Shown here: positions 2,236-22,931 of the stretch, one piece after another
How positions within the stretch are numbered: the stretch's first letter is position 1
Layout of the letters: every line of letters begins with the position of its first letter
Virus genome (UHGV): UHGV-1283594
Length of the DNA: 42,930 nucleotides
Direction: 5' to 3' (one strand)
From: a virus
Notes under the pieces: model-generated
What the model was told of the DNA's origin: nothing
What the model saw: the letters and a program-made list of their open reading frames with translations, nothing else
Databases searched by the model: none
Translations under genes and position numbers: made by a program

Positions 2236-2272
2236 TGCCAGCAAACCCGCATAAATCAAGGGTTTGCTGGCA
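2236..2272. terminator. Bidirectional hairpin between the convergent endolysin and integrase genes
   Basis: Perfect 13-bp inverted repeat TGCCAGCAAACCC / GGGTTTGCTGGCA with an 11-nt loop. It overlaps the last codons of the integrase. Confidence 0.5.
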
Positions 2273-3782: not shown

Positions 3783-3967
3783 GTTATCATCTCCTGGTAT
3801 TTGCTTTATTTTATGAAAAATGGGTACAAAAAAGACGCCCCTTGCGCAGACGTCCTGGAGATGATATAATTCAGGTGCATAAGTTGGATTATATCTGGCC
3901 AGAAGACTGGCAGGAGAAAATCTATGTAAGAGGCCGTTCAGTGCTGGTAACACTGAGCGGTCTTTTA

Positions 3968-4969: not shown

Positions 4970-5065
4970 AGGCTCCTTTCTTAACCGTATGAAAATCTAG
5001 ATGGTTAGTTCTGAAGTGTTTCCAAACCGGAAATAGTTCAGCGTATAAATGTAAGAGAAAATCTA

Positions 5066-5938
5066 TTAACCAATTAGTGGTTCAATAGTTGTAGATGAAG
5101 GTTCCATGGGTGGGATTTTTATATTAGATATGAGTAACTCTTCGGCGTTTCTTGAGGTATGTACGGAGTAGTCCATATGTATGGTTAATGGAGACAATTG
5201 TTTGTACATTTTCCGAATTTCTTCAGCATTATCATAACTAATCAGCCATGGGTAGGTTTTGGATAGGATAAATTTAGATAAAAGCATATGTTGCTCATGT
5301 GTATAATAGCATCTATACAAATTAGCTCCTTCTTTATAGTATGGAGGGTCTATGTATACAAAAGTTTTTCTGTTCCGTTTATATCGTAGTGCTTGCTTCA
5401 TAAAGTCAATAGCGTCTAAATTGTAAAGAGTTATTTTATTTCCATATAGCGAAAGCTGTTGAATGGAATTAATAATCTTATCTTTATTAAATCGACAATT
5501 AATAGGGTATTGAGATTGCTGATTTAGCCCACCGAGTGGATTGGCCTTTAGTATGCCAGAGAAGTTAGTTCTATTTAAAAATAAACCAGCAAAACCTATT
5601 TGAACAGATGTTTTGTCTTGAAGATAATCATTATTTCTATAAAGAGAAAACTCATGCCAATTTTCTAATGTAATATCAGTGTTTCTAATAAGCGTAATCA
5701 GTTCTTCAGTGTGATTAAACACAGAGAACCAAAAGTTATAAAGCAAGGGATCAAGTTCATTAAGAACAGCCTTGCTGATAACTTGGTTTTCCAAAAGTAG
5801 CAATGATATGGCAGCACTGCCAGCGAATGGTTCGTAAAAAGTGCATCCGGTTCGCTGCTCTGCAATAAGTAATTTGCATATATAATCATATAACTTAGAT
5901 TTAGCACCAGGATAGCGTAAGGGATTTTTTATCGACAT
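5066..5938 (-). CDS. Dam-family (D12 class) DNA N6-adenine methyltransferase, 290 aa
   Basis: LRYPGAKSKL (Dam KWAGGKYPL), FYEPFAGSAAISL (AdoMet motif I, Dam VEPFVGAGSVFL), LFLNRTNFSGI (Dam LFLYLNRYGYNG), FVYIDPPYY (catalytic DPPY motif IV). Strong RBS AAAGGAGGTGAG. The gene is very AT-rich. Confidence 0.85.
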   Translation of the reverse strand: MSIKNPLRYPGAKSKLYDYICKLLIAEQRTGCTFYEPFAGSAAISLLLLENQVISKAVLNELDPLLYNFWFSVFNHTEELITLIRNTDITLENWHEFSLYRNNDYLQDKTSVQIGFAGLFLNRTNFSGILKANPLGGLNQQSQYPINCRFNKDKIINSIQQLSLYGNKITLYNLDAIDFMKQALRYKRNRKTFVYIDPPYYKEGANLYRCYYTHEQHMLLSKFILSKTYPWLISYDNAEEIRKMYKQLSPLTIHMDYSVHTSRNAEELLISNIKIPPMEPSSTTIEPLIG

Positions 5939-5991
5939 TTAATCTCACCTCCTTTAGTCAGCTTATCATATTTATAGATATTTGGCCAGAA

Positions 5992-7605
5992 CTAATTGAT
6001 TTTAGGTATTTTGGTTCTGGAAGCTAAAATATTAAATCGATTAACAAATGTTTTTTTGAATGTATCAAGATCTGTTTGGTTATCTTCACACCAATATCGC
6101 ATAATATTTAGATCATCAAACATAGCTTGATTATCTATGAACCAGTGCTTGTATTTCTCACGATTTTTTTCATATGAAGCATATTTGGGTGAAGTCAGAG
6201 GATTCATTTCTTTAAACATTCTAATGGATATACCTTTGTCGAAATTTTCCTGTAAGATTTCGTGAGTTGGAGGGAGATTGATTAAATAATTGTATAGTAA
6301 TGCTTCTGGTCCTTCGTTACCAGGTAAGAAAATAACATTACAATGTTTAGCAGGTAATTCGGCGTATTTGGTTTTTGCTAAATCTTTATCTCCGTCTAAT
6401 ATAAATAGAACATTTTTAAAGTAATCAGGGTCATTATATAAAAGATTCATAAGAGATTCTCCACCTAATTTAATGTCTAAAAGGCGAAAATGATCCTTAT
6501 AGTCAGCGAGCATATGTCTTATGAAATATCGTGCTTCAGCGTCTTCTGAATAAATATTTATCTTTCGATTATTACTGGTCAAATAATAGGTACTAATCAT
6601 CATATCATTCTCCATTGCTTCAAAAGGCGGGTTGTGATGAATTTCAAGCTTACCATTGGCTGTTGTAAAATATTCAATATTGATATCGGAATTTCTTATT
6701 TGCAGGCTGCTTAAATATTCCAAAATTTGCAGTGAGTGTGTAGTAAATACGGCTTGAAAATTGAATTGTTTACATACTTTATAAATTAAGTCAATAAGAC
6801 GAATTTGGGCTGCTGGGTGTAATGTTGCATCTAATTCATCAATAAGTAAAATACCACCGGGCCAAGGTTCTCCTATATTATCATATTCTGTTTTAAGTTT
6901 AATAAATGATAATAATAAATACATAATTTGCATTAAATTGTCTTGTCCGGAAGAATTACTTAAAAAGTCATAATGGGAAGTATTTACTCCACCAGAACGC
7001 TTTTTGAAAATTTCATAGTTTGATATACTAGAAATAGAATCGTCTATGGAAAGAATATACTTGTAGTTTTTGATTAGCCATTGGATATCATCATTTGTTA
7101 ATTTCTTCTTAAATTTTCGTTCCTCAATAACTTCTGAAGTATCTTCACCAAGTGGATACAAGCGACTTAATCCTAAATAAAAAGAAGGAACAGATAACTT
7201 TTTAGCAGTTACTTTTTCACTTATGGAGTGATCAACCCATTTTGGAAGAATTCTAAAACGGTTACTATCAACAGAATCCTTATCCCATTTTTGCCAAGTG
7301 ACACGTAAAGTAATAGGAATCTCGTTATCATTATCTTGTGGGAGGTAAAAAAGAGTACCGATATCTCCACTTCGTTTGTCAAAAGCTTTTGAACCCTTGA
7401 ATAGTTCAGAAAATTCAGTTTTAAATTGTTTATCAGTAATAGTTGTTCCGAATTTACTCTTAAGTTCACAGGTATTTCCAAGAATTCCTAAAATTGTAGA
7501 CTTTCCAGTGGCATTATGTCCAGCTATAGCGGTAATAGTATTCCCTATATGAATAGTTTGATCCTTAAAAATTCTAAAATCTTCTAAATATAGACGAGTA
7601 AACAT
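5992..7605 (-). CDS. ABC-type ATPase fused to a C-terminal Toprim-like (DUF4435/OLD-family-like) domain: putative ATP-dependent nuclease, 537 aa
   Basis: Walker A GHNATGKST. ABC signature-like SSGQDNL. Walker B ILLIDELDATLH. H-loop FTTHS. C-terminal NIYSEDAEARYF (conserved Glu of Toprim), FILDGDKD (DxD) and IFLPGNEGPE. Architecture matches OLD/GajA-type proteins. RBS AAGGAG. AT-rich. Confidence 0.6.
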   Translation of the reverse strand: MFTRLYLEDFRIFKDQTIHIGNTITAIAGHNATGKSTILGILGNTCELKSKFGTTITDKQFKTEFSELFKGSKAFDKRSGDIGTLFYLPQDNDNEIPITLRVTWQKWDKDSVDSNRFRILPKWVDHSISEKVTAKKLSVPSFYLGLSRLYPLGEDTSEVIEERKFKKKLTNDDIQWLIKNYKYILSIDDSISSISNYEIFKKRSGGVNTSHYDFLSNSSGQDNLMQIMYLLLSFIKLKTEYDNIGEPWPGGILLIDELDATLHPAAQIRLIDLIYKVCKQFNFQAVFTTHSLQILEYLSSLQIRNSDINIEYFTTANGKLEIHHNPPFEAMENDMMISTYYLTSNNRKINIYSEDAEARYFIRHMLADYKDHFRLLDIKLGGESLMNLLYNDPDYFKNVLFILDGDKDLAKTKYAELPAKHCNVIFLPGNEGPEALLYNYLINLPPTHEILQENFDKGISIRMFKEMNPLTSPKYASYEKNREKYKHWFIDNQAMFDDLNIMRYWCEDNQTDLDTFKKTFVNRFNILASRTKIPKIN

Positions 7606-7634: not shown

Positions 7635-8078
7635 TTATTTCAGCCTTAATTCAAGCAATTCCTTAGGATATCCTGTGCATTGACAGAACTGGTCCTGAGT
7701 GTATACAGTATAATCTTGCAACATTTCATCTGATATCAAAAGGGAAGCGGCAAACAAATTTGCTTCTCTTTCTATTCCAGATGTAAGCAGTAATGTTTTA
7801 TTTTTTAGAAAAGCACAATTCTCTTTTCTATGTAGTAAAGCATGACCTAATTCGTGTGCTACAACAACCCGAAAAAGTGAACTGTCAGATGGAATATCCT
7901 CATTTATAAAAATCCAACGTTTTCTTTTTAGAAGTTTGTAGTTTCCAGAAATATTGCCTAACGGTAATACTGCGATCTGGATCCCGGCGTACCGTGCAAT
8001 AGTAACAGGATCCCGGCTGCCGGTTAGATGTTCATAGTACCTGATTAAACGACGAATCTTATGATTTACAGTCTCCAA
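7635..8078 (-). CDS. ImmA/IrrE-family zinc metallopeptidase (repressor-cleaving antirepressor protease)
   Basis: HEXXH motif VVAHELGHALLH, size 147 aa. Lies immediately downstream of and co-oriented with the XRE repressor (ImmR/ImmA arrangement). Confidence 0.8.
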   Translation of the reverse strand: METVNHKIRRLIRYYEHLTGSRDPVTIARYAGIQIAVLPLGNISGNYKLLKRKRWIFINEDIPSDSSLFRVVVAHELGHALLHRKENCAFLKNKTLLLTSGIEREANLFAASLLISDEMLQDYTVYTQDQFCQCTGYPKELLELRLK

Positions 8079-8088
8079 ACGGCGTCAC

Positions 8089-8505
8089 CTACTTTTTATT
8101 CTTATTTGGATTGTATTTCACTTTGTTTTCTTTTTTAGTTTCTCTAAGGGCGTATTCAATGGCATTCTGAAGTAGGCTTAGGGAAGCATTATCAATTTCT
8201 ACGCCATTGTAGTATAGAGGACCGTCATCACCTTTACGAATTTCACCCATAATACGGTCTAAATCCTTTTTTATATCTCGTTCATCTCTGGCATTGAGTT
8301 CCGTGTGCTCTTCGCTATCGCCATTAAGTAGATAATCCATTGTAACATTAAAGTATTTAGCAACAGCATTTAACTTATCAGCATTAGGAGTGGATTTATC
8401 CCATTTTACGATTGTACTATTGCCAAAACCCAACTCTGACTCAAGCGCAGGTAAACTAATACCACGTTCTTGCGCAAGGGCTTTTACTCGGTCTTTGAGT
8501 GTCAT
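8089..8505 (-). CDS. XRE-family HTH repressor (cI-like lysogeny repressor, ImmR-like)
   Basis: N-terminal HTH (LAQERGISLPALESELGFGNSTIVKWDKS) plus C-terminal dimerization region. Divergent from the cro-like gene. An operator-rich intergenic region lies upstream. Confidence 0.85.
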   Translation of the reverse strand: MTLKDRVKALAQERGISLPALESELGFGNSTIVKWDKSTPNADKLNAVAKYFNVTMDYLLNGDSEEHTELNARDERDIKKDLDRIMGEIRKGDDGPLYYNGVEIDNASLSLLQNAIEYALRETKKENKVKYNPNKNKK

Positions 8506-8509
8506 AATA

Positions 8510-9029
8510 GTCCCCTTTCAAATACGAGAAAAAAATCTCGAAAAAGTATTGACAAAAAGAAAATATTCTCGTATAGTAAGGAGTGTAAAGAGAAAACATT
8601 CTCGTGCAATGATGATCAGTCGATAAACGCCAATTTAAAAGACTGGATTTAAGAGAATATATTCATATTGCCTATTTGTATAATAGAATATTTTCTCACA
8701 AAAGTCAATATAAGAATGAGAATATTTTCTCTAACAAAGTACATGGGATGAAATCTCAACCCATAAAAATTCCACCGTACAGCGAATACGGTGGAATACA
8801 TGCAGACCTACAAGATTGTTTACGAGTGACGGCTAATTACTTAGCCAGGATATACAGCGCAGGGCTGTCTTCTCCTACGAAATAGGACATGGACAAAAGT
8901 CTATATCCTTTAGCTAAAAGAGTTTGGACCTTTTCAGCTGAATAGGTATATTTTTTCTTTATGGCATTCACCTCCCTCTCGCGGAGGTGTTAGGCCTGCA
9001 TGTACATCATAACACAAGGAGGTGGAACC
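8510..9029. promoter_or_regulatory. Repressor/cro intergenic switch region with repeated 14-bp operators (GAGAAnAnnTTCTC), a plus-strand promoter and a hairpin
   Basis: Operator-like inverted repeats at 8526-8542 (CGAGAAAAAAATCTCG), 8557-8571, 8590-8605 (GAGAAAACATTCTCG), 8653-8666, 8686-8699 and 8718-8731 (GAGAATATTTTCTC). TTGACA (8547-8552), 17-nt spacer, TATAGT (8570-8575). Hairpin CACCTCC-ctctcgc-GGAGGTG at about 8969-8990 just upstream of the cro RBS. Confidence 0.5.
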
Positions 9030-9212
9030 GTGATATACGACAATGTAAAAAAGCTTTGCGATCAAAAGGGAATTTCCATTTGGCGCCTTGAAAGGGATCT
9101 TGGATTTTCTAATCGCAGTGTTAGCAAATGGAATAACAATGAGCCCGGTATCCGCAAAGTTCAGAAAGTAGCGGACTACTTGGGAGTGCCCATTGAGAAG
9201 CTGTTGAAGTAG
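9030..9212 (+). CDS. Cro-like XRE-family HTH protein (61 aa from the GTG start)
   Basis: HTH KKLCDQKGISIWRLERDLGFSNRSVSKWNNN. Start GTG 9030 chosen because AGGAGG (9017-9022) is 7 nt upstream. The track start at 9000 lacks an RBS. Confidence 0.7.
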   Translation: MIYDNVKKLCDQKGISIWRLERDLGFSNRSVSKWNNNEPGIRKVQKVADYLGVPIEKLLK

Positions 9213-13469: not shown

Positions 13470-15059
13470 ATGGAATTGAGACCGTATCAGGCAGAAGCGA
13501 AAGCAGCCGTATTTGAGCAGTGGGATAAGGGTTCATTGAAGACCCTTTTGGTACTGCCCACCGGCTGCGGAAAGACCATCGTGTTTGCAAAAGTCGCAGA
13601 AGACTGTGTGCGTCAAGGATACAGGGTACTGATCCTGGCGCACCGGGGCGAGCTCCTGGAACAGGCTGCGGATAAGATCAAGAAGAGCACGAACCTGGGA
13701 TGTGCGACAGAAAAAGCAGAGCAGACCTGTCTGGGGAGCTGGTTCCGGATCACAGTAGGCTCTGTACAGTCCATGCAGCGTGAAAAGAGACTGTCCCAGT
13801 TTTCAGAGGATTATTTCAATGTGATCATCATTGATGAGGCCCATCACTGCATATCAGACGGATACCAGAAGGTGCTGCAGCATTTCCCATCTGCAAAAGT
13901 CCTGGGAGTGACTGCAACGCCGGACCGTGGCGACATGCGCAACCTGGGAGAATTTTTTGAGAGCCTGGCTTATGAATATACCCTTCCGAAAGCGATCCGG
14001 GAGGGTTATCTATCCCCGATCAAGGCCATGACAATCCCGCTGCAGCTGGATCTGTCCGGGGTATCCATCCAGTCCGGTGATTTTAAAGCCGGTGACATTG
14101 CAACAGCCCTGGATCCGTATCTGCACCAGATCGCGGACGAGATGATGAAATACTGCAGGGACCGAAAGACGGTCGTGTTCCTTCCACTGGTAAAGACCAG
14201 CCAGAAGTTCAAAGAGATCCTGAATGAAAAGGGATTTAAGGCTGCGGAAGTCAATGGTGAGAGCAAAGACCGTACAGAAGTCCTGAAAGCCTTTGATAAA
14301 GGGGAATACAACGTCCTGTGCAATTCCATGCTGCTGACGGAAGGCTGGGACTGTCCGTCCGTTGACTGTGTGATCGTGCTGCGTCCAACAAAGGTGCGCA
14401 GCCTTTACAGCCAGATGGTAGGACGCGGGACCAGACTGTGTGAAGGAAAGAGCTATCTATTGCTCTTGGATTTTCTCTGGCATACAGAACGCCATGAGCT
14501 CTGTCATCCGGCGGACCTGATCTGTGAGAAGAAGGAAGTGGCCCGGAAGATGACGGAAAACCTGGAAGAAACAGCCGGATGCCCTATGGATCTGGAAGAG
14601 GCTGAGAGAAAAGCATCGGAAGATGTGATCGCAGAAAGGGAAGAATCCCTGGCAAAACAGCTCCAGGAGATGCGTACCAGAAAGAAGAAACTGGTGGATC
14701 CATTACAGTTTGAGATGAGCATACAGGCGGAAGACCTGTCCGGTTATGTCCCGGCTTTTGGCTGGGAGATGGCACCGCCTTCTGATAAACAGAAACAGGA
14801 ACTGGAAAAGAGAGGGATCCTTCCGGATGAGATCGACAATGCAGGAAAGGCAAACCTGATCCTGGACCGTCTGCATAAACGGCAGGAGGAAGGCCTTACC
14901 ACACCGAAGCAGATCCGGTGCCTGGAAAAATATGGTTTCCAGCATGTAGGGACATGGACGTTTGAAGCAGGAAAGAACATGATCGACAGGATCGCTGCGT
15001 GCGGCTGGAGAGGAGCCCCAAGAGGTGTGGACCCAAGAAATTATGTACCTGAAAGTTAA
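13470..15059 (+). CDS. SF2 DEAD/DEAH-box helicase (ResIII-like)
   Basis: Motif I LPTGCGKT. Motif II IIIDEAHH. Motif III GVTATPDR. Motif VI QMVGRGTR. Confidence 0.85.
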   Translation: MELRPYQAEAKAAVFEQWDKGSLKTLLVLPTGCGKTIVFAKVAEDCVRQGYRVLILAHRGELLEQAADKIKKSTNLGCATEKAEQTCLGSWFRITVGSVQSMQREKRLSQFSEDYFNVIIIDEAHHCISDGYQKVLQHFPSAKVLGVTATPDRGDMRNLGEFFESLAYEYTLPKAIREGYLSPIKAMTIPLQLDLSGVSIQSGDFKAGDIATALDPYLHQIADEMMKYCRDRKTVVFLPLVKTSQKFKEILNEKGFKAAEVNGESKDRTEVLKAFDKGEYNVLCNSMLLTEGWDCPSVDCVIVLRPTKVRSLYSQMVGRGTRLCEGKSYLLLLDFLWHTERHELCHPADLICEKKEVARKMTENLEETAGCPMDLEEAERKASEDVIAEREESLAKQLQEMRTRKKKLVDPLQFEMSIQAEDLSGYVPAFGWEMAPPSDKQKQELEKRGILPDEIDNAGKANLILDRLHKRQEEGLTTPKQIRCLEKYGFQHVGTWTFEAGKNMIDRIAACGWRGAPRGVDPRNYVPES

Positions 15060-15073
15060 GGAGTAAATAGGAA

Positions 15074-17365
15074 ATGGAAAGAAGCCAGTATGACCTGTTG
15101 GAGGTCTTAGATCATATAGAGCCGGCTGAACTGGATTACCAGCAGTGGTTGAATGTCGGCATGGCCCTGGACCTGGAAGGATACAGCATGGATGTGTGGG
15201 ACAACTGGAGCCGGAGAGATCCCGGCAGGTATCATCCTAGGGAATGCCAGAAAAAATGGAAGGGATTTAAGGGAAATGGCTCCCCTGTGACCGGAGGGAC
15301 GATCGTCCAGTATGCCAGGGAACAGGGTTGGACGCCACCCTATGATCCGGGACATGCCCTGGGCTGGGAAGATACCATTTCCAGTGAGGAAGGCGTGTTC
15401 ATTGACCGGAACTGGGTGGAGGGAAAAGAAGTACGGGAGCCGGCCCGTTTTGATCCGGCAAAGGAACTGATCCGGTATCTGGAGACCCTGTTTGAAGCAG
15501 GGGAGAATGTAGGCTACGTGGTAAAGAGCTGGCAGAAGGATGATAAATGGCTCCCTGCAGATAAAGGATCCTTTGACCGTACTGCAGGGCAGCTGATAGA
15601 AGCACTGTCTGCCTGTGGCGGTGATATCGGCAGCGTCCTGGGAGATTATGATCCTCAGGCTGGTGCCTGGATCCGTTTTAACCCGCTGGACGGAAAAGGC
15701 GTAAGGAACGACAACGTGACAGATTTCCGTTATGCCCTGGTAGAGTCAGACAGCATGGAGATCGACAAGCAGCATGCACTGATCCGGGAGCTGGAACTTC
15801 CTGTGGCATGCCTGGTCCATTCCGGAAAGAAGAGCCTTCATGCCATTGTAAAAGTAGATGCCGCAGACTATGGGGAATACCGTAAGCGCGTGGATTATCT
15901 CTATGACATCTGCAGGAAGAATGGCCTGGAGATCGACCAGCAGAACCGGAACCCATCAAGACTGTCCCGTATGCCAGGTGTGATGCGTGGAGAGAATAAG
16001 CAGTTCCTGATCGATACCAACATTGGAAAAGAAAGCTGGGCCGAATGGAAGGAATGGATCGAGTCAGTCAATGATGATCTGCCAGATCCGGAAAGCCTGG
16101 AAGATGTATGGGACAACCTGCCGGAACTGGCCCCGTGTCTGATCGAAGGAGTGCTGCGTCAGGGGCACAAGATGCTGATCGCAGGGCCCTCTAAGGCGGG
16201 TAAATCCTTTTTACAGATAGAAATGTGTATTGCCATTGCAGAAGGCCGTAAATGGCTGTCTTGGCAGTGCTCACAGGGCCGTGTGATGTATGTGAACCTG
16301 GAATTGGACCGTGCAAGCTGTCTGCACCGTTTCAGGGATGTTTACCAGGCAATGGGGATCCGTCCGGAACACCTGGATAACATTGATATATGGAATTTAA
16401 GGGGCAAGTCCCGGCCTATGGATAAACTGGCCCCTATGCTCATCCGCAGGGCTTCCAAGAAGAATTACATAGCCATTATCATCGATCCGATCTACAAGGT
16501 CATCACAGGTGATGAGAACAGTGCAGACCAGATGTCCAATTTCTGTAATCAGTTCGATAAGGTCTGCACGGAACTGGGCGTGGCCGTGATCTACTGTCAC
16601 CACCATTCTAAAGGCAGCCAGGGCAGCAAGAAGTCCATGGACCGTGCATCCGGTTCCGGTGTATTTGCCCGTGATCCGGATGCAATGTTGGATATGATCG
16701 AGCTGGACCTGTCCGAAGATGCCCTGAAACAGGAAGAGAATAAAGCTGTATGTGAAGCATGCAAACAGTATCTGGACTCCCATTTTAAATGGGAAGATGA
16801 CCTGTCCCAGGATGATCTTTGCAGCAGTTACCAGATGCTCAATTACTGCGAAAACAAGCTGGATGTGTGGCAGTGGGCAAACCTTCAGAAGATGGTGGAA
16901 GCAGCCAGGATAAGGGCCAGGAGTGTTACAGCGTGGCGTATTGAAGGCACTTTAAGAGAGTTCCCGAAGTTTCCGGCAGTCAATGCTTGGTTCAATTATC
17001 CGGTCCATACCATTGATCAGGTAGGGATCTTGAGTGATATTGAGCCAGAGACGGAGAAACCGCTTTGGCAAAAGGCAGCGGAAAAGAGAAAAGAACTGGC
17101 TCAAAAAGCGAAGGAAAAAAAGCTCAGTTCCTTTGAAGTAGAGTTTGCCAACATTGAATTTGAGGGCCGTGAGGTGCCTGCCCAGGAGCTTGCAGATAAG
17201 CTTGATACATCATCAAGGACCCTGCTTTCATGGTTAGGGGACAGCAATAAAAGGAAGAAAGATCTGGCAGATCATTATGAAAAATATCAGGGAGCTGATA
17301 ACAAAATGTATATCAGAAGAAAGGAAAAACAGGGTGCGCCAGACCAGAAAAACGGCGCAGTCTAG
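15074..17365 (+). CDS. Primase-polymerase/helicase fusion (N-terminal PriCT-2-like region + prim-pol + AAA_25/RepA-like ATPase)
   Basis: N-terminus YQQWLNVGMAL...W..WS...Y..C...W. Central segment DFRYALVESDS...LVHSGKKSLHAIVKV. Walker A LIAGPSKAGKSF. Walker B IAIIIDPIYK. Confidence 0.75.
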   Translation: MERSQYDLLEVLDHIEPAELDYQQWLNVGMALDLEGYSMDVWDNWSRRDPGRYHPRECQKKWKGFKGNGSPVTGGTIVQYAREQGWTPPYDPGHALGWEDTISSEEGVFIDRNWVEGKEVREPARFDPAKELIRYLETLFEAGENVGYVVKSWQKDDKWLPADKGSFDRTAGQLIEALSACGGDIGSVLGDYDPQAGAWIRFNPLDGKGVRNDNVTDFRYALVESDSMEIDKQHALIRELELPVACLVHSGKKSLHAIVKVDAADYGEYRKRVDYLYDICRKNGLEIDQQNRNPSRLSRMPGVMRGENKQFLIDTNIGKESWAEWKEWIESVNDDLPDPESLEDVWDNLPELAPCLIEGVLRQGHKMLIAGPSKAGKSFLQIEMCIAIAEGRKWLSWQCSQGRVMYVNLELDRASCLHRFRDVYQAMGIRPEHLDNIDIWNLRGKSRPMDKLAPMLIRRASKKNYIAIIIDPIYKVITGDENSADQMSNFCNQFDKVCTELGVAVIYCHHHSKGSQGSKKSMDRASGSGVFARDPDAMLDMIELDLSEDALKQEENKAVCEACKQYLDSHFKWEDDLSQDDLCSSYQMLNYCENKLDVWQWANLQKMVEAARIRARSVTAWRIEGTLREFPKFPAVNAWFNYPVHTIDQVGILSDIEPETEKPLWQKAAEKRKELAQKAKEKKLSSFEVEFANIEFEGREVPAQELADKLDTSSRTLLSWLGDSNKRKKDLADHYEKYQGADNKMYIRRKEKQGAPDQKNGAV

Positions 17366-18238: not shown

Positions 18239-18375
18239 ATAACAGCAAGAAGATACCCGTCCCAATCTGCTGCATCTGCCAGAAGGTGATCAATGGGGAT
18301 GCAGAGTGGATCAGGACAAAGAGAGGGACGGTGTTGTACATGCATAAGGAGTGCGTAAGGAAGGAAAAATGGTAA
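18235..18375 (+). CDS. Small Cys-rich protein (46 aa, CCIC...HKEC)
   Basis: MNNSKKIPVPICCICQKVINGDAEWIRTKRGTVLYMHKECVRKEKW. ATGA/TAATG coupling on both sides. Confidence 0.35.
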   Translation: MNNSKKIPVPICCICQKVINGDAEWIRTKRGTVLYMHKECVRKEKW

Positions 18376-18770
18376 TGGATACAATATGTCGTAGGGATAT
18401 AAAGCTAAGTGATTATAATATTTCAAGAGCAAAATACAACGAGTTAAAGTATTTTTGCATTCAGTACGCTGAAAAGAAGCAGAAGCTCCAGGATGCGTAT
18501 GGGTTAAAGGCAACAGTAAATGACGGTATGCCTAAGAGCAACCTGTCAGGTGACTCTACGGCCCAGGAAGCAGTCCGAAATGCTATGATGCAGGAAGATA
18601 TCCAACTCATTGAGGAAACCGCCAGAAAAGCCTCTCCTGAGATTTACAAGTGGATATTGAGAAATGTTACAGAGGGAACACCATACGAATGGATGGACGT
18701 TCCAGTGGGACGAAGGCAGTTTTATGAATACCGCAGATATTTTTTCTATCTGCTGGCGCAGAAAAGATAG
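18375..18770 (+). CDS. ArpU-like late transcriptional regulator (sigma region-4-like), 131 aa
   Basis: Size, position (last gene before the late region) and the MDTICRRDIKLSDYNISRAKYNELKYFCIQYAEKKQKL pattern fit the ArpU family of Firmicute phages. Assigned from memory, not from a search. Confidence 0.45.
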   Translation: MDTICRRDIKLSDYNISRAKYNELKYFCIQYAEKKQKLQDAYGLKATVNDGMPKSNLSGDSTAQEAVRNAMMQEDIQLIEETARKASPEIYKWILRNVTEGTPYEWMDVPVGRRQFYEYRRYFFYLLAQKR

Positions 18771-18845
18771 TTTATAAAAATTTTATAATTATTGTATTGG
18801 TGTGAATATGCAAAATTGAATAGACTAATCAGAAAAATTGAATAT

Positions 18846-18895
18846 CTGTTACTACCTGTTACTATCTTTCACTATTTGTTATTATCTTTCGTATT
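18846..18895. repeat. Five tandem 10-bp units (CTGTTACTAC, CTGTTACTAT, CTTTCACTAT, TTGTTATTAT, CTTTCGTATT) in an AT-rich non-coding region
   Basis: Direct reading. Helical-turn phasing. A separate direct repeat AAAATTGAATA occurs twice at 18816-18845. Confidence 0.5.
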
Positions 18896-19011
18896 TTGCT
18901 TTGATATTTCCAAAACGGAAAGACCTAATTTTAGAAATTGCAGTGAAGTGTGTAATTGTGTAGACAATTCAGCTGGTTTACATTGAAGGATGACTGTGAT
19001 ATGTTGTGAAA

Positions 19012-19040
19012 GAGCCACCTACTCAGTGGTGGGTGGCTTA
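19012..19040. terminator. Hairpin AGCCACC ... GGTGGCT downstream of the minus-strand XRE gene
   Basis: 7-bp stem with a 12-nt loop. Confidence 0.35.
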
Positions 19041-19463
19041 TTGATGAAAAAGTTTTTGAGTTAAATAAGTGACATAGTCAGAGGTTTCAAGGACTAATCG
19101 CTTTAATTGGCTGACGGTAACAATAACGGAATTTTTGGTTTTGTTGTTTTCGATATCACAAATCGTAAACGTTCCATCTGGATTTTCATTAAGTTCGAAT
19201 CCAGACAGAGTTAGTAGATATTCAGCAGTGTTTGTTGCCATACTTCCAGTTTCACCGTATATCAAATACGAAACAGACACATCGAGTACATCAGCAATAC
19301 GCTTTAGAGTATCGTGATTAGGTTCTCGATTATTGTTTTCATAGTTTGAATAAGTCGAATATGGAATTCCCAATGCTTCGGCAACAGCTCGTTGAGATAT
19401 TTTTTTATCCATTCTGATACGCTTGATGCGTGTTCCAATTTTTATGATTTCGTTTAGACTCAT
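19038..19463 (-). CDS. XRE-family HTH regulator (141 aa), divergent from the RHH/Bro operon
   Basis: HTH IGTRIKRIRMDKKISQRAVAEALGIPYSTYSNYENNNREPNHDTLKRIADVL. ATG at 19463 preferred over the track GTG at 19472 because GAGGTG lies 7 nt upstream. Confidence 0.8.
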   Translation of the reverse strand: MSLNEIIKIGTRIKRIRMDKKISQRAVAEALGIPYSTYSNYENNNREPNHDTLKRIADVLDVSVSYLIYGETGSMATNTAEYLLTLSGFELNENPDGTFTICDIENNKTKNSVIVTVSQLKRLVLETSDYVTYLTQKLFHQ

Positions 19464-19575
19464 AATATTCACCTCTGAATATATTTTAGCATAAAATATT
19501 CAAATTTGCAAACATACACTTGACATATTCAATATTGAATATTATAATTCACATATATTCGATAGCGAATAGAAG
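19464..19575. promoter_or_regulatory. Divergent control region: TTGACA-17-TATAAT promoter with an 18-bp perfect palindromic operator in the spacer, plus three related ATATTCA half-site palindromes
   Basis: TTGACA 19520-19525 and TATAAT 19543-19548. Spacer is ATATTCAATATTGAATAT (19525-19542). Further palindromes at AATATTCAcctcTGAATATA (19464-19483), TATTCGATAGCGAATA (19556-19571) and CAAATTTG (19501-19508). Confidence 0.6.
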
Positions 19576-19587
19576 GGAGGCGAGACA

Positions 19588-19731
19588 ATGAAGCGAGTAG
19601 GAATTATCATGGATGACGAGCTTCACAAGCAGTTAAAGCATATGGCGGTAAACGAAGGCAGAACAGTAACTGACATTATCGTAGAGCTTGTGAAAGCGGA
19701 AGTTGAAACAAAAAAAGAGCAGTCACGGTAA
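19588..19731 (+). CDS. Arc/Mnt/CopG-like ribbon-helix-helix repressor, 47 aa
   Basis: MKRVGIIMDDELHKQLKHMAVNEGRTVTDIIVELVKAEVE fits the RHH beta-strand-helix-helix pattern. RBS GAAGGGAGG. Not in the ORF track. Confidence 0.55.
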   Translation: MKRVGIIMDDELHKQLKHMAVNEGRTVTDIIVELVKAEVETKKEQSR

Positions 19732-19833
19732 GTTTGGCGACCGACGTGATTGCTCAAAAATCGAAACCTGTAAACCCAGGAATCACCTTGTATTGTAAGG
19801 GATTCCGCCAGAAATTGCAAGGAGGAAATTGCA

Positions 19834-20652
19834 ATGCAGAATTTAATGATTTTTGAAGGACACAATGTAGAGGTATTTGAACTGAATGGACAGGTATTAT
19901 TTAACCCGTATCACGTTGGCACATGCTTAGAACTGGGTGACAGCGCAGTAAGAATGGCCATTGCCAAAATGAACGAAAAGCAGGTTGTTAAGATTAAAAA
20001 TTCGGATGTCAGTAAAGTTGACATCCGAAAATTGAACAATGCGGGTGAGAATTTTCTCACAGAAAGCGGTGTGTATAAGCTGGTATTCAAGAGCCATAAA
20101 CCAAACGCAGAAGCCTTCACGGACTGGATCGCAGATGAAGTTCTTCCAACACTTCGCAAGACCGGTTCTTATGAGATGCCAAAGCAAGACAAGCCCAAGA
20201 AGGAAAAATTGCCGTCTGTAAACATGATGGTGAAGAATGTTAAAGCTGCATTACATGATGCCGGAGTGGATTCTAAGTACATAGCAGCAGAAGTAATGAG
20301 GATTTATTCCGATTCAGGTTATCCAGTTAATGCCCCAGTAATCTCAGACGAACCAAAATTGTGGGACTGCACAGGTATTGCCAAAGAGTTAGGTATTTTT
20401 TCCGAGTCTGGCAGACCACATGATAAAGCAGTCAGTGCCATTATTCAGAAGCTGGATATTTTTACAGATGAGATTGTGAGAACTGCTTACAGTCGGAATG
20501 GTCATGACGGTGTTACAGTTCAGTATAAGGGAAGTGTTCTGGAGAAAGTCAGGGAATGGCTGAATGAGAATGGTTATCCGATTGTGATTGAGCTTATGCT
20601 CTCCAATGGCAATAGCAATAAATGCAAGGTTGTTTATGGGGAGGTGGCGTAA
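19834..20652 (+). CDS. Bro-N/KilA-N-domain prophage antirepressor with a C-terminal domain
   Basis: N-terminus FEGHNVEVFELNGQVLFNPYHVGTCLELGD...ENFLTESGVYKLVFKSHKPNAEAFTDWIADEVLPTLRKTGSY is a clear Bro-N signature. Confidence 0.8.
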   Translation: MQNLMIFEGHNVEVFELNGQVLFNPYHVGTCLELGDSAVRMAIAKMNEKQVVKIKNSDVSKVDIRKLNNAGENFLTESGVYKLVFKSHKPNAEAFTDWIADEVLPTLRKTGSYEMPKQDKPKKEKLPSVNMMVKNVKAALHDAGVDSKYIAAEVMRIYSDSGYPVNAPVISDEPKLWDCTGIAKELGIFSESGRPHDKAVSAIIQKLDIFTDEIVRTAYSRNGHDGVTVQYKGSVLEKVREWLNENGYPIVIELMLSNGNSNKCKVVYGEVA

Positions 20653-20867
20653 TGACATATTCAGAATTTTGTGATCAGATTGCACCGTCTGTTTTAGAAC
20701 TGGAAAAAGAATGCAGCAAAATGAGTTTGGAAGAATTTAAAGAATTCCGTGAGGATGTTATGCACGAAGCTGGAAAGCATAATTATAGCAAGAAGTTTAT
20801 GTCCGCCGTGCTTGATATGATATATGGTCATCTGTTTTTTAAAGATACTGCACAGGGGGTAGCCTAA
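20652..20867 (+). CDS. Hypothetical protein, 71 aa
   Basis: TAATGA coupling with the Bro gene. Confidence 0.3.
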   Translation: MTYSEFCDQIAPSVLELEKECSKMSLEEFKEFREDVMHEAGKHNYSKKFMSAVLDMIYGHLFFKDTAQGVA

Positions 20868-20868
20868 A

Positions 20869-21078
20869 GTGAATGTTCAGGAAGAATTAAGAATAAATGG
20901 ATATCAGCCTACAGTTGGATATCCAGGAACGGATATGGGAGATTTTTTCAAAGGGTTAATGGATAGATATAAATGTGAATGCTCACCATTTATGCTTTCA
21001 GTGGCTTATACATATGGAGTGATTCAAGGAAAGAGAGAAGAACGATTCAGAAGAAAAAATAAAAAAGTGGGTAACTAG
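20869..21078 (+). CDS. Hypothetical protein, 69 aa (GTG start)
   Basis: ORF only. Weak RBS. Confidence 0.25.
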   Translation: MNVQEELRINGYQPTVGYPGTDMGDFFKGLMDRYKCECSPFMLSVAYTYGVIQGKREERFRRKNKKVGN

Positions 21079-21189
21079 AGAGGGGTACTTCCGTGATATT
21101 ATGGTAGCATGAATTAAGCCAAAGGCATACGGCCGGCGGCTTACGTCGAACCCCACCAGGCAGCAGGCGAAAGCTTGTTGCCTCCCCCC

Positions 21190-21257
21190 TTGGAACGTAG
21201 CTCAGAGGTAGAGCAATGGCTTGTGTCCTAAGCGAAGGTTCGAGTCCTTCCGTTCCG
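21190..21257 (+). pseudogene. tRNA-like element / degenerate tRNA: canonical acceptor, D-arm and T-arm, but a truncated anticodon region
   Basis: TGGAACG-TA-GCTC-AGAGGTA-GAGC ... GAAGG-TTCGAGT-CCTTC-CGTTCCG-A. The 7-bp acceptor pairs fully (U1.G72). Only 19 nt lie between the D- and T-arms where 22-23 are expected, so no proper anticodon stem forms. A 7-bp hairpin (GGCAGCA...TGTTGCC, 21160-21183) sits just upstream. Confidence 0.35.
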
Positions 21258-21299
21258 ATGATTTTAGTTGCTATTTTTGTACTTCCCCTTTTTTCTTGG

Positions 21300-21338
21300 A
21301 AGCCTCTGTTAGATGCAGGGGCTTTCTTTTTACTGTAT
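21300..21338 (+). terminator. Rho-independent terminator after the tRNA-like element
   Basis: AAGCCTCTG-ttagatg-CAGGGGCTT followed by TCTTTTTACT. Confidence 0.5.
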
Positions 21339-21376
21339 TTAGGAGTATGATAAATAAAACTGAAGGGGGAGAAATT

Positions 21377-22150
21377 ATGAAATGTGCAAAATGCCTTTTA
21401 AACAAATTAAAAAACAGCCGTTTGGGGTTAGGAATAATAGTGTTGCTAATAATAGCAGTGCTTTTCCCGTTTTTAACGATTGGCTTAATAACGCCGATTG
21501 ATAATCCACCTCAATGGCTGAATGGAATATGTACTTTTTTGTCTAATGTTAAAGAAAGTAGTGATTGGATTGGCTTTTGGGGAAATTATTTTGGAGGTGT
21601 AAGCGGTGGCATAATTACAATTACGGTTTTCTTTTGGACTATTAAGGACTCGGAGGAAACAAGAAAAGAAGAAAAAAGATTACAAGTAATGCCGGTGTTT
21701 GATTATGTAGTTGTCGGAAAAGCATTTGTAACTTATGAAAAGGATTTATTATGTAATGCAGTTGCCCCAGATAGAAAAAAAGATACTTATAGTTATAGGC
21801 TAAATATTAGTTTACAAATCTGTAATATTGGTCTAGGACCAGCTCAAAAAGTATTTTTAAAAAGTTGTAAATATGGGGCAATTGAACAGACTCGTAAAAT
21901 GATAGGTACAATTCCAAAAGGATCTAATAGAATTATTCAAGAAAACTTTAAATTTTTAAATAATGATGATCCTACTAACGGATATCCTAAGACAATTCAT
22001 TTAGTTTTTGGATTTAAGGATATGCTTGGGAATGAATATGAACAGCAGTTTGACATGAATATACAGCGTATTATTATGGAAAAGGGAGAGTGGTGGGATA
22101 TAATCATAATAAATGATGATCCAGCTAACCTTATAAGTACATATAATTAA
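21377..22150 (+). CDS. AT-rich moron: two-TM membrane protein (257 aa) with a C-terminal soluble domain. Candidate superinfection-exclusion/abortive-infection protein.
   Basis: Start ATG 21377 has AAGGGGGAG 7 nt upstream (the track ORF starts upstream, with no RBS). TM1 LGLGIIVLLIIAVLFPFLTIGLI. TM2 IGFWGNYFGGVSGGIITITVFFWTI. Composition is visibly much more AT-rich than the flanking genes. Confidence 0.55.
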   Translation: MKCAKCLLNKLKNSRLGLGIIVLLIIAVLFPFLTIGLITPIDNPPQWLNGICTFLSNVKESSDWIGFWGNYFGGVSGGIITITVFFWTIKDSEETRKEEKRLQVMPVFDYVVVGKAFVTYEKDLLCNAVAPDRKKDTYSYRLNISLQICNIGLGPAQKVFLKSCKYGAIEQTRKMIGTIPKGSNRIIQENFKFLNNDDPTNGYPKTIHLVFGFKDMLGNEYEQQFDMNIQRIIMEKGEWWDIIIINDDPANLISTYN

Positions 22151-22223
22151 TGCTAACAAGTAGGAGTCACCCAGCGTGGCTCCTTTTCTATACCCAAAAC
22201 CGACGAAAGTGAGGTGAACGGAC

Positions 22224-22931
22224 ATGGCCAGAGCGCCGGATCCAAGAATAGAACAGGCGAAGGCCATGTATCTGGAAGGAGAGAAATTGGTTGAGATTGC
22301 AAGTCAACTAAATCTGCCGGAAGGGACGGTACGTCGTTGGAAGTGTACGCATAAATGGGATAACGAACGTTCGGGTAAGAAAAACGAGCGTTCGCAAAAA
22401 CGTAAACGGGGCGCTCAGCCAGGTAACCATAACAGCTCTGGTGGACCTCCGGGAAATAAGAAAGCAGAAAAATTCGGTTTCTTCAGCAAGTATCTGCCTG
22501 AGGAGACCGTTTCTATTATCCAGGAGATGCCGACGGACCCGCTGGATGTCCTCTGGGATCAGATCCAGATTGCTTATGCGGCTATTATCCGGGCACAGCA
22601 GATCATGTATGTGCGTGATCGGGATGATAAAACAATCGAGAAAATCGAGGAGAAAGACGGCAACGTGATCGGGGAACGCTGGGATGTACAGCATGCCTGG
22701 GACAAGCAGGGAAAATTTCTACAGGCCCAGGCCAGGGCACAGTCGGAGCTTCGCAGCCTGGTTAAACAGTATGACGAGCTGTTGCATAAGCGTTGGGACC
22801 TTGCCAGTGATGAACAGAAAGCCCGCATAGCTCAGATCAAGGCCCAGACGGACAAACTTAAGGGTACTGACAACGAAGAGGAGCTGAGCCGCCTGGATCA
22901 GGTTCTTAGTGAGATCAAAGGGGTTGTATAG
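22224..22931 (+). CDS. Terminase small subunit (HTH N-terminus)
   Basis: N-terminus IEQAKAMYLEGEKLVEIASQLNLPEGTVRRWK is terS-like. Immediately upstream of and overlapping terL. Confidence 0.7.
   Translation: MARAPDPRIEQAKAMYLEGEKLVEIASQLNLPEGTVRRWKCTHKWDNERSGKKNERSQKRKRGAQPGNHNSSGGPPGNKKAEKFGFFSKYLPEETVSIIQEMPTDPLDVLWDQIQIAYAAIIRAQQIMYVRDRDDKTIEKIEEKDGNVIGERWDVQHAWDKQGKFLQAQARAQSELRSLVKQYDELLHKRWDLASDEQKARIAQIKAQTDKLKGTDNEEELSRLDQVLSEIKGVV

Follow-up and report, generated by a model that had tools for sequence, protein, structure and literature searches.

A candidate control cassette for an antirepressor-type gene in a gut phage genome, laid out like P22 immI with non-homologous parts

We analyzed the virus genome UHGV-1283594 of a gut Clostridia phage, a stretch of 42,930 nucleotides referred to throughout as the window, and concentrated on a cassette in which the gene for an XRE-family repressor is divergent from a small operon encoding a 47-aa ribbon-helix-helix (RHH) protein and a Bro-N protein (Bro). 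This layout had been described in a first-pass annotation, and all genes were found where it had placed them. Our analysis indicates that the unit is probably an autonomous, exchangeable control cassette for an antirepressor-type gene, doing the job of the immI region of phage P22 with non-homologous parts. The evidence comes from comparisons of related phages, first of their repressors and operators and then of the spacer between rhh and bro. Antirepressor modules let prophages sense and induce one another or escape one another’s immunity; to our knowledge, their control has been described almost exclusively in enterobacterial phages.

Exchange of repressors with their operators

The rhh–bro operon lies behind P_R, the only 12/12 promoter match within 18300-22400 (Table 1). 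The first-pass annotation had reported a TTGACA-17-TATAAT promoter with a spacer filled by a perfect palindrome, and this site, here termed O3, was confirmed. Of the three further palindromes reported with it, O1 and O4 held up; O2 combines one good half-site with a 4/7 half-site and is a probable weak operator. O1 covers the ribosome-binding site of XRE together with the predicted transcription start of this gene, O2 lies within the spacer and −35 element of the XRE promoter P_xre, and O4 spans about +1 to +18 of the P_R transcript. Read from the sequence, the site centers are spaced by 31, 29 and 30 bp, about three helical turns, and O1 and O3 have one half-site in common, 60 bp apart. The heptamer ATATTCA occurs 21 times in the window against 10.0 ± 3.2 expected, a count reached in none of 100 shuffles, and five of the 21 copies fall within 78 bp (19465-19542). 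Perfect 7-N4-7 inverted repeats are present at about shuffle level (three versus 2.6), and two of the three are O1 and O3. A relaxed site, TATTCR-N4-YGAATA, occurs three times in the 42.9-kb window, always inside 19466-19571, and XRE is therefore regarded as a local regulator. The copies of ATATTCA/TGAATAT at 18803, 18839, 22033 and 22056 do not qualify as distal operators, as they are direct rather than inverted; the first two lie in an insert missing from the type A contig L027 and the last two inside the open reading frame (ORF) at 21374-22150. No connection to SOS emerged; no LexA-type box was seen by eye in 19464-19587, where no formal scan was made.

Comparison of related gut-phage contigs addressed which protein uses these sites. 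The bro gene (83-99% identical) is always preceded in them by a gene for a ~47-aa RHH protein and a divergent helix-turn-helix (HTH) repressor gene, and the repressor and the entire intergenic region are exchanged as one block. At least six cassette types were distinguished, each with its own repressor and its own palindrome in or beside the spacer of a near-consensus rightward promoter (Table 1). Type B cassettes encode an RHH protein 94-96% identical to that of the window, yet have an unrelated 135-aa repressor and unrelated palindromes; in the prophage L217, with type B operators, the RHH β-strand KRVGIIM is identical to that of the window. RHH cluster c2 was thus paired with both type A and type B operators, and among 47 distinct cassettes, the RHH clusters c31, c27 and c17 were paired with four, three and two repressor clusters, respectively. 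The loci L007, L010 and L012 provided the complementary case. Over the HTH domain, their repressors share only 50-58% identity with the window repressor, and the remainder is unrelated; the recognition helix PYSTYSNYENNNREP is nevertheless exactly the same, and the half-site TATTCA/TGAATA is found at the O2, O3 and O4 positions. The P_xre arrangement is also kept, with the same half-site in its spacer. In L007-L012, the slot of the small gene is occupied by a 72-aa Cro-like HTH gene instead of an RHH gene (for example, at about 3550-4000 of L007, reverse strand), whose product has kept the C-terminal ..ETKKE(QT) that the H1 arm described below encodes.

Because near-identical RHH proteins have other palindromes and the half-site follows the recognition helix without an RHH protein, the ATATTCA palindromes are, on this comparative evidence, operators of the XRE repressor and not Arc-type sites. 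The Arc-like role at these sites that the first-pass annotation had given to the RHH protein found no support, as the sites follow the XRE recognition helix rather than RHH. By the same comparison, RHH is a member of a conserved right-hand cassette half that is combined with many repressors. A separate RHH operator, sought as a motif common to cassettes with the same RHH and different repressors, was not found in the 5′ untranslated region, the spacer, the rhh ORF or the insert downstream of XRE. Periodic repeats of 10 bp at 18843-18882 looked like a possible RHH array, a reading dismissed because they show no linkage with RHH.

Both ends of the exchangeable block are marked by hairpins. On the left, the hairpin at 19009-19037 is kept in every cassette type, whatever repressor adjoins it, and encodes the ..KPPTTE tail of the repressor in types B, C and F. 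On the right, the boundary is hairpin H1 at the rhh 3′ end, which encodes the common ..KKEQSR tail. The repressor/operator block thus appears to be shuffled between phages at two conserved hairpin junctions, with the block comprising rhh, predicted antisense RNA, leader and antirepressor gene conserved. This pattern is what would be expected if antirepressor control is an immunity specificity under diversifying selection. With at least 15 repressor clusters in a small sample, the cassettes would also represent a natural library of orthogonal repressor/operator pairs with one common output module.

The rhh–bro spacer and a predicted antisense RNA

From the last rhh codons to the bro start (about 125 nt), the sequence is about 93% or more identical across types A-F, and more distant spacer versions precede genes with Bro-N, Rha-like or other antirepressor-type starts. 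Alignment A1 comprised 31 diverged spacers. Since MAFFT gave no single register for hairpins H2 and H3, covariation was counted for H1 only and H2 was assessed sequence by sequence. In H1, whose loop holds the rhh stop codon (19729-19731), 94.7% of cells were paired, with compensatory changes in four pairs. Double-change cells numbered 28, compared with 10.6 ± 2.1 in shuffles, none of which reached this value in 500 trials, and sliding the partner columns collapsed the signal. H1 is kept where the ORF ends earlier (L040 and L051), so the constraint is on the nucleotides. The A-run before H1 is invariant in the 31 spacers and no T-run follows, so H1 is not a rightward terminator; on the minus strand, hairpin and U-run form a predicted canonical leftward intrinsic terminator.

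A matching promoter, P_as, was predicted upstream on the same strand. Within its region (alignment columns 95-124), nothing is invariant except CAA and A....TA of the plus strand, which on the minus strand correspond to the TTG of a −35 element and the T, A and T of a −10 element, exactly 17 bp apart. In each of 12 diverged spacer families (12/12), TTGnnn-17-TAnnnT is present a single time on the minus strand and is absent from the plus strand, against a chance expectation of 2-8% per family. The distance from P_as to H1 is constant while total spacer length varies. Together, promoter and terminator define a predicted small RNA whose sequence is complementary to the 3′ end of rhh and to the rhh-proximal two thirds of the rhh–bro spacer (Table 1). 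Its predicted fold has a free energy of −22.9 kcal/mol (z −3.15), and either strand of the spacer folds more stably than shuffled sequences do (z about −3.2). With a covariance model built for the RNA, a single match was obtained in the window (19708-19788, minus strand) and one directly 5′ of bro in each of two further prophage loci, neither of which had served for training, and none in 80 loci around ImmR-type main switches. From these sequence data, a cis-antisense RNA of ~76 nt is likely made from the spacer. Neither the RNA nor its promoter/terminator pair had been part of the first-pass annotation.

The loop of H1 (19728-19744 in the window) carries a motif, (A/C)TTTGGCGA(C/G), that is replaced by its reverse complement CCGACCAAAG in some families and in Clostridioides difficile phage CDMH1 (L007, L051 and L224), an arrangement suggestive of an inverted hairpin top. 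UUGG is compatible with YUNR, the U-turn motif of antisense recognition loops; should it be one here, the RNA carrying it would differ between families, being the sense RNA in some and the antisense RNA in the rest.

Downstream of H1, a hairpin folds at the H2 position in 31 of 31 diverged spacers with unrelated arm sequences. The sequence of H2 varies independently of the RHH type and of the downstream protein, and H2 is therefore not a protein operator. In the window, the 5′ arm GGAATCACCTT resembles a Shine-Dalgarno sequence and the 3′ arm AAGGGATTCC an anti-Shine-Dalgarno sequence. Because the −10 element and start site of P_as lie inside H2, only the sense RNA has both arms. P_as lies upstream of the bro Shine-Dalgarno sequence (19820-19825) and the predicted RNA begins near 19786; thus, the antisense RNA cannot mask the ribosome-binding site directly, and any control must be indirect. 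Such a route is offered by the H2 3′ arm (..GGGAUUCC), which is complementary to the Shine-Dalgarno region and whose partner, the 5′ arm, is covered by the antisense RNA. When the antisense-complementary segment was blocked in folding calculations, the probability that the Shine-Dalgarno sequence is unpaired fell from 0.80 to 0.32 in the window, from 0.78 to 0.00 in L040 and from 0.92 to 0.30 in L012. We therefore propose, tentatively and from modeling, an indirect anti-Shine-Dalgarno switch through H2, for which convergent-promoter interference and RNA duplex cleavage may be alternatives or additions. Taken together, the chances are about even that the spacer represents an undescribed family of cis-antisense RNA plus structured leader that is widespread in gut Clostridia phages, gates translation by an anti-Shine-Dalgarno switch, adjoins a shuffled repressor half and is convergent with P22 sar/immI and with RNAII of plasmid pMV158.

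Table 1 Features of the cassette and palindromes of the cassette types
Feature	Position	Strand	Description
Left junction hairpin and terminator, repressor gene 3′ end	19009..19037	−	AGCCACC...GGTGGGTGGCT
XRE-family repressor	19038..19463	−	141 aa; HTH_3 E 1.5e-16, 60.6 bits versus cut-off 23
O1	19465-19482		ATATTCAcctcTGAATAT; perfect 7-N4-7 inverted repeat
P_xre	19483..19511	−	−35 TTGCAA, 17 bp, extended −10 TGcTAAAAT
O2	19496-19513		One good half-site (ATATTCA) and a 4/7 half-site
P_R, rhh–bro operon promoter	19520..19548	+	TTGACA (19520-19525), 17 bp, TATAAT (19543-19548); 12/12
O3	19525-19542		ATATTCAATATTGAATAT; perfect 18-bp palindrome, fills P_R spacer
O4	19555-19572		ATATTCGatagCGAATAg; symmetric A->G / T->C variant
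RHH protein, first gene of P_R operon	19588..19731	+	47 aa; ParG, RHH_5 and PHROG matches
H1	19710..19755	−	11-bp hairpin, 19717-19727 with 19745-19755; A-run 19710-19716
Predicted cis-antisense small RNA	19711..19786	−	~76 nt; interval set by P_as and H1
H3	19767-19780		CCTG/CAGG
H2, bro mRNA leader hairpin	19779..19806	+	19779-19789 with 19797-19806
P_as, predicted antisense promoter	19792..19820	−	−35 TTGCAA (19820..19815), 17 bp, −10 TACAAT (19797..19792)
Bro-N protein, antirepressor-type	19834..20652	+	272 aa; Bro-N (PF02498) and phrog_2011
Rest of P_R transcription unit	20652..21326	+	orf71, orf69, tRNA-like gene, terminator-like hairpin
orf71	20652-20867	+	Start overlaps bro stop as TAATG
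orf69	20869-21078	+	P_R unit
tRNA-like gene	21190-21259	+	49 bits with Rfam tRNA model; no anticodon assigned by ARAGORN
Terminator-like hairpin	21298-21326	+	3′ of tRNA-like gene
Type A (window) palindrome			ATATTCA-N4-TGAATAT
Type B palindrome			GCACTAATTAGTGC
Type C motif			TGTACA motifs
Type D palindrome			ATCATAC-N5-GTATGAT
Type E palindrome			ACCGT-A-ACGGT
Type F palindrome			CCCATATATGGG

Proposed mechanism, alternatives and genomic setting

In the mechanism that we propose, XRE would bind the ATATTCA-N4-TGAATAT sites; as comparison of relatives suggests, O3 and O4 would serve to shut the very strong P_R, and O1 and O2, placed over the XRE promoter and ribosome-binding site, would provide negative autoregulation. 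Convergently with P_R, a ~76-nt antisense RNA predicted from conservation would run from P_as (19820..19792) to H1 (19755..19710). Judging from folding, it would pair with the rhh 3′ end and the H2 5′ arm and leave the bro ribosome-binding site uncovered, and the freed anti-Shine-Dalgarno 3′ arm would then occlude that site. Leaky transcripts would thereby be silenced, perhaps with help from transcriptional interference or from cleavage of the RNA duplex. With XRE absent, as in a naive or heteroimmune cell, or inactivated, P_R would presumably fire across P_as, sense RNA would exceed antisense RNA, and RHH, Bro, orf71 and orf69 would be made. In the manner of Arc and CopG, RHH would curb this burst, and Bro might act on the ImmR-like main repressor or on repressors of co-resident prophages, as its annotation suggests.

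Several observations weigh against parts of this mechanism. The OFF fold is already dominant, or blocking is without effect, in L052, L053, L090, L116, L121, L133, L043 and L039. Wobble pairs leave the strand of H1 undecided, with 94.7% of cells paired as plus-strand RNA and about 95.6% as minus-strand RNA (hand count). No DNA segment among the operators, the spacer family and the insert downstream of XRE co-varies with the RHH cluster in the comparative data, which offer no candidate site for the assumed Arc- or CopG-like feedback. The Bro C-domain belongs to no recognizable family, only the N-domain having weak KilA-N/APSES-like matches. Bro occurs at 83-99% identity on different phage backbones, and one sibling contig was present in both the Bro and the ImmR-like lists (L037/L141, ImmR 72%), the other loci being too short to reach the main switch. 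With near-identical Bro on different backbones and a single ImmR co-occurrence, a dedicated Bro–ImmR pairing is therefore hypothetical. Lastly, the label ‘anti-repressor’ may be wrong, by analogy with Listeria proteins of this label with Bro-N, pRha or AntA/B N-termini, which inhibit the SOS response and induction (PMC9043618).

The last points lead to the alternative that survives best, in which the regulatory anatomy is the same, Bro is an AriS-like or other regulator (an SOS modulator or a DNA-binding early regulator) and the cassette is a tightly gated moron instead of a second immunity region. We consider it somewhat unlikely. The AriS-type Listeria proteins act in a phage with an ImmA-like protease switch (PMC9043618), and the main switch of the window is likewise of the ImmA/ImmR type, needing no antirepressor. 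The product of the gene 3′ of the conserved leader varies at its N-terminus (Bro-N, Rha-like or other) and has a common C-domain, and Bro is conserved across different backbones, which would also fit. That Bro inactivates the 8089-8505 repressor, an idea raised by the first-pass annotation, is suggested solely by the annotation label. The AriS activity, however, maps to an ANT/KilAC C-domain that was undetected in Bro at E values up to 10, and an immunity-type function would predict what is seen, a conserved effector behind a dedicated repressor that is hypervariable. An antirepressor role is further favored by the phrog label and by a Bro homolog in phage Castelnaud, which holds the classical repressor/Cro-like/anti-repressor slot of a primary switch.

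A second alternative, which we judge unlikely, dispenses with the antisense RNA. H1 and H2 would be structures of the sense rhh–bro mRNA, involved in processing, stability or translational coupling, or recombination joints, and the minus-strand promoter match would be a by-product of the conserved loop and the sequence flanking the Shine-Dalgarno. H2 can form in the sense RNA only, G-U pairs in the window H1 favor the plus strand, and the conserved block does serve as a recombination boundary. In addition, no Rfam family matched the spacer (Rfam 15, 19700-19840, E up to 5), the only solid match in the 4-kb region being the tRNA-like gene. Against these points, other H1 variants have G-U pairs only as read on the minus strand, and the invariant A-run before H1, useless to a plus-strand terminator, gives a canonical U-run on the minus strand. 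The alternative would also leave unexplained why TTG and TA...T at exactly 17 bp are the sole invariance in 12 of 12 families that differ in hairpin sequence and length. The annotated P22 sar terminator, moreover, occupies the same position relative to arc.

It appears very improbable that the ATATTCA palindromes are bound by RHH, alone or with XRE, in the way that Arc occupies the ant promoter. RHH is the first product of the palindrome-bearing promoter, Arc and CopG autoregulate in this way and the symmetric variant O4 could in principle represent a second specificity; against this stand the near-identical RHH proteins, one with an identical β-strand, behind the different palindromes of types A and B, the combination of one RHH cluster with up to four repressor clusters and the half-site that follows the XRE recognition helix even where RHH is missing. 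Equally improbable is a toxin–antitoxin-like or abortive-infection pair unrelated to lysis–lysogeny, with XRE/RHH as antitoxin and Bro as growth-inhibiting effector: Xre–Bro pairs did surface in a comparative toxin–antitoxin screen, some Ant/KilA proteins are toxic (PMC2701414) and the cassette is a low-GC moron followed by an uncharacterized membrane protein, but the authors of the screen judged the pairs to be regulators rather than toxins (PMC2701414), the 47-aa RHH, as read from its sequence, is without a toxin-binding extension, PADLOC gave no defense-system match for RHH, Bro, orf71, orf69 or the membrane protein (and only generic HTH models for XRE) and operators within promoters form a classical switch geometry.

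The individual proteins were characterized by family searches. For XRE, translation probably starts at the ATG at 19463, which has GAGG 7 nt before it; the GTG at 19472 proposed by the ORF lister is an upstream alternative. Its HTH domain covers residues 8-72 and the C-terminal 70 aa have no family match; the nearest solved relatives in PDB were ICEBs1 ImmR, P22 C2 and SinR. No S24 peptidase domain was found in XRE, and ImmA is not adjacent. The matches of RHH are weak and consistent: in Pfam, ParG scored 23.2 bits, barely over its cut-off of 21.4, and RHH_5 21.5 bits, under its cut-off of 26, with further matches to RHH_10 and ParD; PHROG returned ‘Arc-like’ at 1.5e-5 and PDB the ParG RHH domain at E 0.0018. 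A strand/helix/helix pattern could be read by eye from the sequence. RHH clusters differ at residues of the β-strand that are predicted by eye to face DNA, which suggests specific DNA binding. In Bro, the Bro-N domain spans residues 12-105 (E 4.7e-13, 50 bits versus a cut-off of 25.6) and the full length matches phrog_2011, ‘anti-repressor Ant’, at 1e-43. The C-domain (about residues 115-272) is common to proteins with other N-termini. Searched in isolation, it gave no meaningful Pfam match even at E values up to 10, including ANT/KilAC (PF03374). It was also without a PDB sequence match or a Foldseek fold match against PDB. The structure model of Bro was poor, with a predicted local distance difference test score of 61.7 (29 sequences, 73-97% identity); Foldseek matches of its N-domain to KilA-N/APSES-like folds (baculovirus Orf22 N-domain and Mbp1) were weak, at E 0.05 or worse. 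Downstream, orf71 and orf69 accompany bro in sibling contigs. A GC-rich and seemingly structured stretch (21110-21190) lies upstream of the tRNA-like gene, which apparently closes the rhh–bro transcription unit.

Family searches of its proteins indicate that the whole window resembles a complete temperate phage genome. At the left end, an endolysin gene (1320-2087) is followed by a serine recombinase gene (2256-3953) and accessory genes (RhuM, D12 methyltransferase and PtuA/AbiEii-like ATPase). The primary switch comprises genes for an ImmA-type metalloprotease (7635-8078), an ImmR-like HTH protein (8089-8505) and a divergent Cro-like protein (9000-9212). Long plus-strand ORFs 3′ of this switch are putative replication genes. 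The cassette comes after the replication/late-regulator genes, located between a conserved gene for a 139-aa protein (18351-18770, phrog_11237) and terS, which starts at 22224, and has 37-40% GC in comparison to 50% and 46% in its flanks. GC content and mosaic comparisons thus point to a moron-like low-GC block far from the main switch. Close relatives are uncultured IMG/VR viral contigs and prophages in Clostridium sp. OM02-18AC and a Lachnospiraceae metagenome-assembled genome. When the upstream gene (18351-18770) was used to search for relatives without the cassette, the matches were close relatives only, all cassette-bearing. A DNA search of 18300-22300 against cultured phages gave a sole match of 126 bp at 71%, inside Bro genes of C. 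difficile phages, and by this search, the region has no close relative among cultured phages.

Further features were observed outside the cassette core. A non-coding insert of ~240 bp (18771-19008) between the 18351-18770 gene and the XRE terminator contains 10-bp periodic direct repeats (TAYCTGTTAC-like, three to five copies, 18843-18890) and direct TGAATA repeats. In sibling contigs, its place is taken by unrelated DNA (L027 and L037) or the insert is absent (L015 and L022). All such inserts begin with GTTTATAAAAATTTTATAATT, and most have a TTTACA..GTGATAT promoter-like motif near the right end. Between the cassette terminator and terS, the ORF at 21374-22150 in low-GC DNA encodes a 258-aa membrane protein (possibly 309 aa from a TTG at 21221) with an N-terminal hydrophobic segment and without a reliable family or defense-system match; its placement recalls sieA in the P22 ant moron. 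An accessory island of 31-36% GC (3968-7605) between the serine recombinase and ImmA genes encodes a RhuM-family protein (3968-4969), a D12 adenine methyltransferase (5066-5938) and a 537-aa AAA ATPase with PtuA/AbiEii-like matches (5992-7605), and may be a prophage-borne defense system. A second antirepressor-type gene, encoding an ORF6N-domain protein (693-1250, E 6e-22), lies directly 5′ of the choline-binding endolysin gene (1320-2087) and contains a perfect 7-N4-7 palindrome, TTCTCTAATAATAGAGAA, at 795.

Relation to known systems

The analogy with P22 immI drawn in the first-pass annotation holds for the layout, with a divergent repressor, a small RHH protein and an antirepressor-type gene, to which an antisense pair is now added; it does not extend to homology, of which there is none. 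In the annotated P22 record, mnt is divergent from arc–ant, and O_arc and O_mnt are placed in overlapping promoters. Both systems thus combine a divergent maintenance repressor, a strong promoter followed by a small RHH gene and an antirepressor-type gene, and operators in overlapping promoters. P22 sar is 70 nt long (15021-15090), has its promoter inside ant and ends in a terminator that abuts the stop codon of arc, which ends at 15022; similarly, H1 spans the rhh stop codon of the window and the predicted RNA is ~76 nt long. An ‘ant moron’ has been described in P22-like phages, and immI and the cassette are both far from the primary switch, as morons by late or packaging and accessory genes (PMC2629481). 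The parts differ. P22 Mnt and Arc are RHH proteins of family PF03869 and Ant carries P22_AR_N/C, whereas the window encodes an XRE HTH repressor, a ParG/CopG-like RHH protein and Bro-N. Mnt matched PF03869 at 4e-30 along with PF11423 in Pfam, in place of which the window repressor has HTH_3/XRE; RHH gave no BLASTP alignment with Arc and no PF03869 match; and Bro aligned with P22 Ant at a BLASTP E value of 0.49, with different Pfam domains. The P22 promoter Psar lies inside ant and sar covers the whole arc–ant spacer to the ant start, whereas P_as is upstream of the bro Shine-Dalgarno sequence. Arc also has a mapped operator, whereas none was found for RHH in the cassette. All four immI roles (maintenance repressor, small RHH protein, predicted antisense RNA and antirepressor-type gene) therefore seem to be present by sequence, and none is homologous to Mnt, Arc or Ant.

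For the spacer, the closest parallel comes from plasmid pMV158. Its copG is a ~45-aa RHH gene, first in its operon, and RNAII arises from the copG–repB spacer. The order of RHH gene, countertranscript spacer and regulated gene corresponds to rhh, P_as/H1 and bro in the window, and both systems are from Firmicutes. The repressor CopG and the antisense RNAII together hold down repB (PMC4485353). pMV158 differs in controlling a plasmid replication initiator instead of a phage regulator and in having no divergent second repressor, and CopG is the transcriptional repressor of that system, whereas the comparative data speak against use of the promoter palindromes by RHH.

Among Firmicutes phages whose primary switch combines repressor, Cro-like and anti-repressor genes, Flavonifractor phage Castelnaud has a divergent HTH repressor, a small DNA-binding protein and a homologous anti-repressor gene (41% identity in the C-domain). 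Its module is the main switch, next to ImmA/ImmR and followed by excisionase and replication genes, whereas the window contains a second, separate copy of this logic, with a repressor whose sites are confined to the cassette. In Castelnaud, a gap of 30 nt between the Cro-like and anti-repressor genes leaves no room for an antisense unit. The relatives L007-L012, with a Cro-like HTH protein as the small gene, resemble Castelnaud-type switches. AriS-like proteins of Listeria comK phages are two-domain proteins with an N-terminus that alternates between Bro-N, pRha and AntA/B, in a system where an ImmA-like metalloprotease handles the repressor (PMC9043618). The AriS C-domain is ANT/KilAC (PF03374), undetected in Bro, and the account of AriS presents it as an early gene and mentions no dedicated repressor/antisense cassette (PMC9043618).

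Gifsy antirepressor genes are under LexA control. Trans-acting antirepressors mediate crosstalk between Gifsy prophages (PMC3121763), and induction modules of Vibrio phages combine a transcription factor (TF) with a small ORF (smORF) (PMC10432266). Like the cassette, both are separate modules whose protein inactivates master repressors, opening induction routes or cross-talk between co-resident prophages (PMC3121763 and PMC10432266). In the TF-smORF modules, the transcription factor is described as activating the neighboring small-protein gene (PMC10432266), whereas the cassette has a dedicated hypervariable repressor and a predicted antisense RNA.

A related module was found in the cultured myovirus CDMH1 of C. 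difficile (L224, HG531805), inside the tail-gene cluster at 1640-2010. A TTGAAA-17-TATAAT promoter flanked by TCGCGATACA repeats precedes the RHH-like gp19, followed by a minus-strand terminator, a minus-strand TTGAAA-17-TATACT promoter and the Bro protein gp20. No divergent repressor gene is annotated next to the module. The covariance model gave no match in CDMH1 at a threshold of E 0.01, and the case is drawn from a promoter/terminator scan and folding. If the proposed mechanism holds, the cassette offers a candidate new regulatory RNA family and a testable route for prophage cross-talk in polylysogenic gut bacteria. CDMH1 and the Flavonifractor phage Castelnaud provide cultured entry points.

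Set against earlier work, immI itself was already known, as were Xre–Bro gene pairs (PMC2701414). What the comparisons would add are an apparent non-homologous re-creation of the whole four-part circuit in Clostridia phages, block-wise shuffling of its repressor/operator half at putative hairpin joints and a family of antisense RNA and leader that is well supported as a prediction. If true, phages of dominant human-gut Clostridia use the four-part logic of P22 with unrelated parts, a case of convergent circuit design.

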